Source: a virus. Taken from it: a DNA stretch of 44,106 nucleotides. Made by a program: the position numbers and the translations under genes. The first letter of the stretch is position 1. Each line of letters opens with the position of its first letter. This document shows positions 41,384 to 42,428 of the stretch, in pieces. Where the stretch lies: IMG/VR virus record IMGVR_UViG_3300042934_000260, positions 1 through 44,106 of that record. The stretch is one strand, 5' to 3'. The notes beneath the pieces were generated by a model. It saw only the letters and a program-made list of their open reading frames with translations, did no database searches and had not been told where the DNA came from.

Positions 41384-41440
41384 TGTCGCAATCGCGACTT
41401 CTTATGAGTCAAATATAGCATGTCGCAATCACGACGTCAA
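41384..41440 (-). promoter_or_regulatory. Near-consensus leftward promoter with two operator palindromes
   Basis: On the - strand: TTGACG (41440-41435), a 17-nt spacer, then TATATT (41417-41412). TGTCGCAATC(G/A)CGAC occurs twice on the + strand (41384-41398 and 41421-41435), once in the spacer and once in the 5' UTR. Confidence 0.7.
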
Positions 41441-41510: not shown

Positions 41511-41519
41511 TGCTAAAAT
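41511..41519 (+). promoter_or_regulatory. Extended -10 promoter (TGcTAAAAT) for the tRNA-like RNA
   Basis: TG at 41511-41512 and TAAAAT at 41514-41519. No good -35. Confidence 0.45.
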
Positions 41520-41588
41520 GGTAGTAGGTAAAGAGCGGGCACCGACGGCGGCACGCCCCCACGCGCTGGACGGTGCTTGTGTTTATAT

Positions 41589-41646
41589 GTCTCGGTAGCT
41601 CAGTCGGTAGAGCCGTGGTGCGCTGGTTCAATTCCAGTTCGAGGCA
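41589..41646 (+). ncRNA. 58-nt tRNA-like RNA lacking an anticodon arm
   Basis: The acceptor is GTCTCGG / TCGAGGC with discriminator A. The D arm is GCTC-AGTCGGTA-GAGC and the T arm is GCTGG-TTCAATT-CCAGT. Only 8 nt (CGTGGTGC) sit where the 17-nt anticodon arm and variable loop should be. Confidence 0.6.
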
Positions 41647-41660
41647 TTGTTTCCTCCGTT

Positions 41661-41680
41661 GACCCTTCGGGGTCTTTTTT
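41661..41680 (+). terminator. Rho-independent terminator after the tRNA-like RNA
   Basis: Stem GACCC / GGGTC, loop TTCG, then T6. Confidence 0.8.
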
Positions 41681-41698
41681 ATTTGATTTGAAAGGGTG

Positions 41699-41938
41699 AT
41701 GAACATGTATAAGAAGACACCGGAAGAACAAAAGGCAACGCTGGATCGTAGTCTGACGAATATCAAGCCGAGCGAAGACGCAATCGAGCGCATCGAGCAG
41801 TTGCGTGAAGCTGCTAAATCGTTGGGGCACCAGATCATCGACCTCTGTCCGGACAGCCGGGAGAAGTCGCTGGCACTGACGCACCTGGAAGAAACGGTAA
41901 TGTGGGGCGTTAAGTCGATCGTCTTGGAAAGCAATTAG
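41699..41938 (+). CDS. Small helical protein, possibly an Acb2-like nucleotide sponge (hypothesis)
   Basis: About 78 aa. IERIEQLREAAKSLGHQIIDLCPDSREKSLALTHLEETVMWGVKSIV fits the widespread phage motif CP..RE.SLA.T.LEE..MW. The family link is from memory. The start is ATG 41699 or 41705. Confidence 0.35.
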   Translation: MNMYKKTPEEQKATLDRSLTNIKPSEDAIERIEQLREAAKSLGHQIIDLCPDSREKSLALTHLEETVMWGVKSIVLESN

Positions 41939-41946
41939 GAAGGGTG

Positions 41947-42066
41947 ATGGGTGTGACATTCAGTGCCAATCTTGGTGGATGGGGAATTATTATCGCCTAC
42001 ACAATGTTTTGCTTGCTAGTTGGATATTGCGTCGGAGAATGGAAAGCGAAAAGAGGTGTGAAATGA
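41947..42066 (+). CDS. 39-aa single-TM mini-protein (not in the ORF track)
   Basis: RBS aggaaggg. MGVTFSANLGGWGIIIAYTMFCLLVGYCVGEWKAKRGVK. ATGA overlap with the next gene. Confidence 0.45.
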   Translation: MGVTFSANLGGWGIIIAYTMFCLLVGYCVGEWKAKRGVK

Positions 42067-42428
42067 AACTCCACACAGACGGAACCATCGAGGGAACGCC
42101 GGAGGAAGTGGCGGCTTATAAGCGGGAGATGTATCCGGTGCTTGTAACGGAAGGGCGGATCAAACCGCCGGACTTCCCTTTGCCGGGAGTGAATGTACGT
42201 CCGTCGGAAGTGACTCATGCCATTTCACAAAGCACGATTGCGAGCACAGGGCAGAGCTTGAAGGAACCGTTCAGCTGGAACGAATGGACAGGTGTATTAG
42301 AAAAGATGGACCGCGTGCGAGCATTCAAGTTCCCTAAAAGGTGGCTTGAGCGCTATACGGTTCTTGAACTGCTAGAGGAAGTCGATAAACGCAAGAAAGT
42401 CGCAAGGGAAACTGGAATGTACTTGTAA
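42063..42428 (+). CDS. Hypothetical protein (121 aa from ATG 42063)
   Basis: In frame with track ORF 41979..42428 and coupled to the upstream mini-ORF. Confidence 0.5.
   Translation: MKLHTDGTIEGTPEEVAAYKREMYPVLVTEGRIKPPDFPLPGVNVRPSEVTHAISQSTIASTGQSLKEPFSWNEWTGVLEKMDRVRAFKFPKRWLERYTVLELLEEVDKRKKVARETGMYL

Follow-up and report, generated by a model that had tools for sequence, protein, structure and literature searches.

The locus and its tRNA-like RNA

The stretch of DNA analysed here, called the window below, comprises the 44,106 nucleotides (nt) of the IMG/VR virus record IMGVR_UViG_3300042934_000260, and the nearest named relatives of its proteins are from Paenibacillus. Towards its end, the window possesses a predicted forward-strand transcription unit only ~150 nt long, containing a 58-nt RNA similar to a tRNA from which the anticodon arm is missing. 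Four genes follow this unit, in the order of an Acb2/Tad1-family protein of 77 amino acids (aa), an open reading frame (ORF) of 121 aa, terS and terL, and a three-gene operon on the reverse strand, then a late transcriptional activator, are located on its upstream side. The 58-nt RNA belongs to a family of armless tRNA-like elements that is widespread in phages and apparently undescribed. An extended -10 promoter, a paired leader, the tRNA-like sequence and a terminator had all been proposed at this site by an earlier inspection of the DNA (hereafter, the original prediction), and all of them are confirmed in the sequence, the terminator also by a terminator scan (Table 1).

Regarding its structure, the element has a 7-bp acceptor stem, including two G.U pairs, a discriminator A, canonical D and T arms and only 8 nt in place of the anticodon arm and variable loop, in full agreement with the parts originally described; the 3' CCA is not encoded. 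All 16 base pairs are intact, and the elbow, also expected to be so, is borne out by the tertiary-core bases, every one of which is kept (U8, A14, G15, G18, G19, A21, T54, A58 and a C at the C48 position). When compared with the Rfam tRNA model (RF00005, gathering score 29), positions 41589-41646 reach 38.4 bits from end to end (model positions 1-71; E = 1e-4 over the whole window), with 4 nt standing for the 18 model positions of the anticodon arm. Meanwhile, ARAGORN calls neither a tRNA nor a tmRNA over the whole window. Since the Rfam match is obtained with the arm deleted and ARAGORN gives none, a normal cloverleaf has not been misfolded here and no anticodon arm is hidden in the sequence. 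Thus, the element matches the tRNA covariance model above its threshold and carries acceptor, D and T arms with their tertiary bases, but it lacks the defining anticodon stem with a 7-nt loop, and for this reason it is a tRNA-like RNA and not a tRNA. The folding stability z-scores are 0.0 for the 161-nt unit and -1.8 for the 58-mer; thermodynamic stability alone is therefore uninformative, and the case rests on covariation.

Table 1. Positions in the window of the armless RNA, its transcription unit and the features around it (MFE, minimum free energy; RBS, ribosome-binding site; HTH, helix-turn-helix).
Feature	Position	Strand	Basis
tRNA-like RNA without anticodon arm, 58 nt	41589-41646	+	Read from sequence; Rfam tRNA model
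Acceptor 5' strand GTCTCGG	41589-41595	+	
U8 and A9	41596-41597	+	
D stem and loop, GCTC-AGTCGGTA-GAGC	41598-41613	+	
8-nt linker CGTGGTGC, in place of anticodon arm and variable loop	41614-41621	+	
T stem and loop, GCTGG-TTCAATT-CCAGT	41622-41638	+	
Acceptor 3' strand TCGAGGC	41639-41645	+	
Discriminator A	41646	+	
Extended -10 promoter TGCTAAAAT, predicted start ~41526	41511-41519	+	Consensus match, sequence only
GC-rich 5' leader with hairpin, ~62 nt	41526-41588	+	Hairpin in MFE fold
Leader stem	~41537-41544 with 41571-41578	+	
Core of leader stem, GCACCG / CGGTGC	41539-41544 / 41571-41576	+	
Intrinsic terminator GACCC-TTCG-GGGTC, then T6	41661-41674, then 41675-41680	+	Sequence and terminator scan
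RBS GAAAGGGTGAT of downstream gene	41690-41700	+	Read from sequence
Acb2/Tad1-family protein, 77 aa, first ORF after RNA unit	41705-41938	+	Pfam PF24729, E = 3e-18; gene called in source contig
Reverse operon, 118, 53 (HTH) and 85 aa	40547-41366	-	
Predicted strong promoter of reverse operon, TTGACG-17-TATATT preceded by TG	41440-41412	-	
Near-identical palindromes GTCGCAATCGCGAC and GTCGCAATCACGAC	41385-41398 / 41422-41435		
terL, continuing past the window end	from 43045		

A widespread family of armless elements

In a normal tRNA, the D arm and the T loop are separated by ~26 nt. A first search pattern, combining the fixed D arm of the window type with a T loop only 5-15 nt away, is found in 56 viral contigs, one locus in each, with 44 distinct sequences. 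The same pattern gives 57 matches in 185,579 species genomes, ~17 of them true members lying in prophage-like regions of hosts from many phyla (Lactobacillaceae, Streptococcus, Corynebacterium, Roseburia, Oleispira, Pirellulaceae, Rhizobiales and others). As the viral collection is far smaller than the genome collection, the element is strongly virus-enriched. Because the D stem is fixed in this pattern, a second one leaving it free was also run, adding at least 36 further distinct members. Their D stem covaries (GAAC/GTTC, GCAC/GTGC, UAUC/GAUA and GAUC/GAUC), and the total reaches at least 80 distinct armless elements, which occur in cultured phages, in viral contigs and in prophages from many phyla.

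When 23 sequences are aligned, 95.7% of the cells are paired, compared to 37-47% when the register is slid, and compensatory changes occur in all seven acceptor pairs and in three T-stem pairs. The observed covariation score is reached by none of 500 shuffles, and RNAalifold, to which the fold was not supplied, returns the same three helices. In addition, the family keeps U8, A14, G15, G18, G19, A21, the T54-A58 stretch and the C at the C48 position. The RNA structure is under selection, and the decoding arm is absent by design.

The spacing between D stem and T loop is bimodal: 5-10 nt is never seen, whereas 11-15 nt (mostly 11-12) is found in 44 sequences, 16-20 nt in three and 21-24 nt in many. 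Such a sharp lower bound and the trough that follows would not result from random deletions in tRNA genes, and the armless form is a discrete, selected class instead of a decay series. The preference of the original prediction for a functional, non-decoding mimic over a decayed gene is thus supported by the recurrent architecture, the compensatory changes and the discrete length class. The forms with 21-23-nt spacing are mostly non-decoding as well, being missed by ARAGORN or given 'anticodons' of 2 or 4 nt, so that phages carry a broader population of non-decoding tRNA-like genes.

The family model built from these sequences (R1) describes an acceptor, a D arm, a T arm and 8-12 nt between D stem and T stem, kept by covariation, and the window element fits this description. 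It scores 66.8 bits, being itself part of the seed alignment, and independent members score 76.2 bits (Polaribacter phage Danklef) and 52.2 bits (P335 phages). Across the family, A is the commonest discriminator and acceptor helices of 7-9 bp are usual. An encoded 3' CCA right after the discriminator is seen in two of ~60 copies (L045 and L083), where ~1 is expected by chance, and is rejected as a family feature.

Some related forms were noticed during these searches. At L026:11540-11640, the tRNA-like body caps a long hairpin of 23 bp, and an overlapping permuted tmRNA is called by ARAGORN. Four viral contigs (L202, L206, L213 and L217) have the anticodon arm replaced by a 4-bp stem whose loop carries a Shine-Dalgarno-like AGGAGGU, and another reduced-arm sub-class has a recurrent aggaaacaattccaagtccca form (L234, L254, L281 and L295). 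A separate chromosomal class of Bacteroidota possesses the same D and T arms 14-15 nt apart and no acceptor helix; its upstream CCTGTT can pair with AACAGG of the linker, a hairpin follows the T arm, and the arrangement is conserved across genera, in Spirosoma and Larkinella (L072, L076, L081, L099, L100, L103 and L108) as well as in Chitinophagaceae and similar hosts (L084, L085, L087, L090, L091, L098, L104 and L111).

The transcription unit and its exchangeable cargo

Two close relatives of the window, L199 (TerS 95% identical) and L395 (Acb2 97% identical), share its promoter, leader hairpin, terminator and RBS. The conserved block around the -10 element starts at ~41494, and the DNA further upstream differs in L199. 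The pairing of the leader hairpin is kept in both relatives via changes from G.U to G-C and from G.U to A-U, which in three sequences gives weak support to the stem. The terminator, beginning 14 nt past the 3' end of the tRNA-like RNA, is conserved despite the different upstream cargo, and the RBS is conserved up to the point where the downstream genes diverge. As the interval between terminator and RBS is too short for a separate promoter, the downstream gene would rely on terminator read-through. This gene codes for what the original prediction had called a possible sponge protein, and it proves to be a real member of the Acb2/Tad1 family, matching, in addition to the Pfam family (Table 1), the 'Acb2 homolog 43' of the Protein Data Bank (PDB) entry 9ptq (E = 0.003). 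Proteins of this family are sponges for cyclic-nucleotide immune signals.

The cargo between leader and terminator is different in each relative. L199 carries, at the homologous position, a partly mispaired tRNA-like RNA whose anticodon arm is cut down to a tetraloop-capped mini-arm (CUCG-GUAA-CGAG), together with a second aberrant tRNA-like RNA and a 185-nt hairpin domain, and its downstream gene is Tad2, in the slot of the Acb2-like gene of the window. The accessory island that had been suspected here is therefore genuine. In L395, the cargo consists of an aberrant tRNA-like RNA of the second kind of L199, a normal tRNA-Trp and a small ORF, and the next gene is Acb2. The homology among these relatives is mosaic, with breakpoints at the cargo borders and at the start codon of the sponge gene. 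The element travels with anti-defence genes in this lineage, as genes of known families adjoin the cargo slot (Acb2/Tad1 in the window, Tad2 in L199, Acb2 in L395) and the cassettes are exchanged. The picture is that of a conserved, early-looking platform upstream of terS, made of promoter, leader, swappable tRNA-type cargo, terminator, RBS and swappable immune-signal sponge.

Some details of the relatives are worth recording beside this picture. The extra domain of L199 (L199:4856-5040, ~185 nt) is closed by a stem of ~16 bp, the z-score of the whole unit being -3.0, and none of the Rfam families is matched at threshold; below threshold, an alignment of the YrlA type (20.6 bits, with a gathering score of 69) covers the T arm of the first tRNA-like RNA and the D arm of the second. 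The junction of the Acb2-like/Tad2 exchange lies right at the RBS and start codon (window 41684-41710; L199:5075-5105; L395:1185-1210), and the first ~60 nt of the following ORF (42063-42123) are also common to the window and L199. The small ORFs of the slot (121 aa in the window; 126 and 43 aa in L199) may be further anti-defence candidates, judging from their place.

Outside these close relatives, a Paenibacillus nuruki prophage of unrelated arrangement has an aberrant tRNA-like RNA 58 nt upstream of its Acb2 gene, and no tRNA-like RNA is found near more distant Acb2 homologues. More distant terS relatives carry an ordinary, intact tRNA-Pro(UGG) in the equivalent slot upstream of terS, which suggests that the element class probably descends from tRNA genes. 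Among 80 TerS-related viral loci (best identity 59%), the element is missing, and only ordinary tRNAs and one degenerate acceptor/T fragment are seen, so that the element is not an old fixture of this terminase lineage. This fragment, a 50-nt acceptor/T-arm element with no recognisable D arm (L143:5191-5240), is located ~760 nt upstream of terS in a distantly related prophage and may represent a relative that is reduced still further, or else a tRNA 3' fragment of unrelated origin. As for the DNA itself, neither the promoter-leader block nor the terminator-RBS block has a match in the viral contigs, the promoter-leader block and the linker type of the window have none in metagenome contigs, and the 341-bp region has none in 50,697 phage records.

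The reverse operon upstream has its own predicted promoter, flanked on either side by near-identical palindromes (Table 1). It is missing from L199, and L395 has other palindromes (GTCGTATGTGCGAC) at the same position; operon and palindromes together look like an inserted, self-regulated accessory module, as far as their arrangement indicates. The window, which forms a 44-kb Logan contig of its own, is a circular permutation of the phage genome (1-2074 and 43045-44106), with terL running past its end and L199 being co-linear across window end and start.

Genomic settings of the family

Regarding the family as a whole, ordinary tRNAs are absent from the neighbourhood of ~40 of the 56 viral loci, and in ~10 the element is inside or at the end of a phage tRNA array. 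All-against-all clustering of the flanking ORFs and two aggregate Pfam scans reveal no recurrent protein partner. As the hosts also belong to many phyla, the partner of the RNA must belong to the host, either to its conserved machinery or to a system of wide occurrence. Genomes handle the element like a tRNA gene, and no dedicated phage protein is needed.

Among cultured phages, Danklef carries the element 1.8 kb upstream of terS, with 13 nt between it and the following ORF; its annotation reads simply 'tRNA-OTHER, Undet', a label that is the only database trace found. About 19 Lactococcus phages of the P335 group carry it as well, including the well-studied dairy phages P335, bIL309 and TP712, in which it is unannotated; ARAGORN misses it. 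The Lactococcus copies stand alone after the lysin terminator, with a TGtTATAAT box of their own in front and no co-directional gene downstream, and the homology between D2950 and bIL309 starts exactly at acceptor position +1. In the temperate bIL309, the element directly adjoins the integrase arm-type repeats of attP, and it is retained in lytic derivatives that have no integrase. Between lysin and element, bIL309 (L197:800-1430) also has several small units without annotated genes, in each of which a terminator comes after a consensus promoter, which are possible prophage-expressed small RNAs.

Proposed function and alternatives

The reading that we favour is that of a functional RNA that imitates the tRNA body without decoding, would mature as tRNAs do and would act in trans, probably as a counter-defence decoy; as a whole chain it is tentative, at somewhat less than an even chance. 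The RNAs of the family keep the acceptor/T-arm helix, the D arm, the elbow between D loop and T loop and the variable-loop core, with a bridge of 2-3 nt replacing the anticodon stem-loop. In the window lineage, the armless RNA would be the cargo of an early-looking unit of the sigma-A type (extended -10, leader hairpin, cargo, terminator), and the same unit would feed the downstream anti-defence gene through terminator read-through. What RNase P, RNase Z and the CCA-adding enzyme recognise in a tRNA is the acceptor/T helix with the elbow, and the anticodon arm plays no part in this. Since the conserved parts are those read by these enzymes, the precursor is expected to undergo cleavage at G1 (RNase P) and after A73 (RNase Z); CCA would then be added, as for CCA-less tRNA precursors of Firmicutes, resulting in a stable RNA of ~61 nt.

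Such a mature RNA would not decode and would offer no anticodon loop to cleave, yet its shape could be read by tRNA-binding proteins, on which it would work in trans. A function in trans is favoured over a purely cis one due to the copies in tRNA arrays, the promoter-driven copies of Lactococcus and the terminator-bounded unit of the window. Due to the anti-defence setting, the most attractive role is that of a decoy or competitor that cannot be cleaved, aimed at those immune effectors of the host by which tRNAs are bound, cut or modified, and working beside the signal sponge. A broader proposal, possible and clearly more doubtful, is that phages encode a repertoire of such RNAs (armless 58-mers, tetraloop-capped mini-arm forms and aberrant-loop forms) as anti-defence decoys or inhibitors on the tRNA-recognition surfaces of the effectors, in Paenibacillus-type phages expressed from a dedicated early cassette with cyclic-nucleotide sponges.

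Several points weigh against the decoy. In well-studied defence nucleases, PrrC for example, it is mainly the anticodon loop that is read, and an armless RNA has no such loop to offer; a stoichiometric decoy needs high abundance or tight binding when opposed to a catalytic enzyme. The acceptor helix is extended in some copies (12 bp in L005, 13 bp in L054 and 23 bp in L026) and poorly paired in two others (L007 and L015), and such copies would be poor substrates of RNase P. The anti-defence neighbourhood is seen only in the Paenibacillus-type lineage, and a homologue search with the neighbouring proteins of the window recovered only terminases, with no Acb2 homologue, in the other element-bearing loci. 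Instead, most family members adjoin capsid (major head), scaffold, tail or terminase genes, and many copies lie in short gaps between co-directional genes, a position that suits a role in cis equally well.

This role in cis is the alternative that survives best, and we take it to be possible without thinking it probable. The element would be a punctuation or stability signal, that is, a minimal and portable RNase P/RNase Z site in phage transcripts, with the small RNA as a by-product. Through cleavage, mRNA ends would be set apart or fixed, or else a structured 5' end would remain as a protection, and the expression of the neighbour (acb2-like here, capsid or terminase elsewhere) would be uncoupled from upstream RNA. 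The tight gaps, with sizes in nt on either side of 46/24 in the L009 group, 9/18 in L020, 49/35 in L024 and 48/42 in L045, together with Danklef, are in line with this, as is the recurrent position beside major head, scaffold and terminase genes. Moreover, exactly the parts needed by RNase P are conserved and the acceptor sequence varies freely, and acb2 of the window, having no promoter of its own, formally makes the RNA unit its 5' leader. A precedent exists in the tRNA-like t-elements at plant mitochondrial mRNA ends (PMC1920247). However, an additional processing site would be of no use to the copies that lie within tRNA arrays, those of Lactococcus have their own promoter and no co-directional gene to serve, and a terminator stands between the window element and acb2. 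In addition, the platform of the relatives holds two or three tRNA-type cargos where one cut site would suffice.

A function in trans on the core host machinery seems improbable. In this case, the RNA would titrate or redirect RNase P, the CCA-adding enzyme, modification enzymes, EF-Tu or the ribosomal E/P sites, or be aminoacylated by a synthetase that ignores the anticodon, then serving or blocking a non-ribosomal use. The occurrence in many phyla with no dedicated protein partner would fit universally conserved partners, and the complete tRNA core and elbow and the mostly A discriminator agree with it. On the other hand, the acceptor stems vary freely and share no identity element, and the 3:70 pair is never G:U, so that the family does not point to any one synthetase; a single small gene would hardly prevail over all the tRNAs of the cell in competing for abundant enzymes, and the anti-defence neighbourhood of this lineage would be left unexplained.

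Decay, which the original prediction had also considered, is a very remote explanation and is already largely refuted by the family analysis. An ordinary tRNA upstream of terS would have lost its anticodon arm by deletion and would now be drifting, as could be imagined from the intact tRNA-Pro(UGG) of more distant relatives, the tRNA-Trp in the same cassette of L395 and the different, partly mispaired tRNA-like RNA of L199. Relatives, however, show no random degradation, and other non-decoding tRNA-like RNAs occupy the same promoter-terminator cassette; the same architecture recurs in at least 80 distinct sequences of unrelated phages with compensatory changes in all helices, lengths are bimodal with a sharp lower bound, and in the window all pairs and tertiary-core bases are intact between a conserved promoter and terminator.

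Least credible of all is a DNA-level site, either a tRNA-derived integrase attachment or recombination site or a hotspot of cassette exchange: it could be suggested by the attP arm-type repeats beside the bIL309 element and by cargo exchange exactly at the element borders in the window lineage, but the crossover core of bIL309 is a different 29-bp repeat 125 nt away, by which an identity with attP is rejected, the element persists in lytic derivatives without integrase, most copies are far from integrases, and helix-preserving compensatory changes are not expected of a protein-binding DNA site. A role as primer, one of the functions first suggested for this RNA, is unsupported, as no stretch of 11 nt or longer in the window is complementary to the mature RNA with CCA, where ~1 is expected by chance.

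If the favoured decoy acts on tRNA-binding immune effectors, a class of RNA would be added to the counter-defence repertoire of phages, and it would help to explain their many 'undetermined' tRNA-like genes. If the RNase P/RNase Z punctuation is true instead, phage operons would use an organelle-style mRNA processing, and the element would be a compact natural part for synthetic biology. Either reading is directly testable in tractable systems, such as the P335 phages of Lactococcus and Danklef of Polaribacter. In addition, the cassette, with its promoter, leader, swappable tRNA-type cargo, terminator and swappable sponge, marks a hotspot for seeking new anti-defence genes.

Comparison with known systems

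Phage tRNA genes (RF00005) are among the closest known systems, sharing the acceptor stem, D arm, T arm, elbow bases and variable-loop core with the armless element, as well as its niches (upstream of terS, in tRNA arrays and after the lysin) and probably its maturation. Phage tRNAs counter tRNA-cleaving defences. The armless element, in contrast, has no anticodon stem-loop, and can neither decode nor replace a cleaved host tRNA, nor is it called by ARAGORN.

The tRNA-like domain of tmRNA also combines an acceptor stem and a T arm without an anticodon arm and is processed by tRNA maturation enzymes. It differs by its G3:U70 alanine identity pair, its stemless, degenerate D loop, its large mRNA-like domain and its partner SmpB, while the phage element has a full D arm, no coding domain and a C3-G70 pair in the window. 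An identity with tmRNA is thus rejected, as ARAGORN finds none, no tag is present and the 3:70 pair is never G:U in the family. YrlA (RF02553) is another non-decoding RNA with a tRNA-like module (T arm, D arm and acceptor-like stem); it is known from bacteria and from some phages, and tRNA enzymes act on it. In its circularly permuted order, the T arm precedes the D arm; a Ro-binding helix stands at the position of the anticodon stem, and YrlA is linked to rsr. The element has the standard topology of 5' acceptor, D arm, T arm and 3' acceptor, and the window gives no RF02553 match up to an E-value of 10, so that this identity is rejected too. AcrIIIA1, bacterial Schlafens, allo-tRNAs and tRNA gene fragments are irrelevant to the armless class.

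The t-elements and the MALAT1-associated mascRNA are tRNA-like, non-decoding RNAs recognised by RNase P and RNase Z, and they set the ends of the transcripts beside them; unlike the phage element, they belong to eukaryotes or organelles. T-elements mainly mimic the acceptor/T arm, and mascRNA keeps a (short) anticodon arm, whereas the phage element has a full D arm and core with the arm cleanly deleted. The structural prerequisites of a processing signal of this type are present in the element, and many copies lie in operon gaps.

tRNA mimicry is well known, and what appears to be new here is a widespread phage family that keeps the tRNA body with the decoding arm cleanly deleted. No description of a conserved phage RNA family of this kind, nor of a tRNA-body decoy, was found in the literature searched, whose coverage is incomplete. 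As a functional analogy only, pseudo-ToxI repeats and RNA anti-CRISPRs are small phage RNAs that imitate an RNA partner of the host to neutralise a defence protein, although what they imitate is an antitoxin RNA or crRNA repeats, not a tRNA. By analogy, the armless element may function like t-elements and mascRNA, if it acts in cis, or like the decoys of the pseudo-ToxI and RNA anti-CRISPR type, if it acts in trans.

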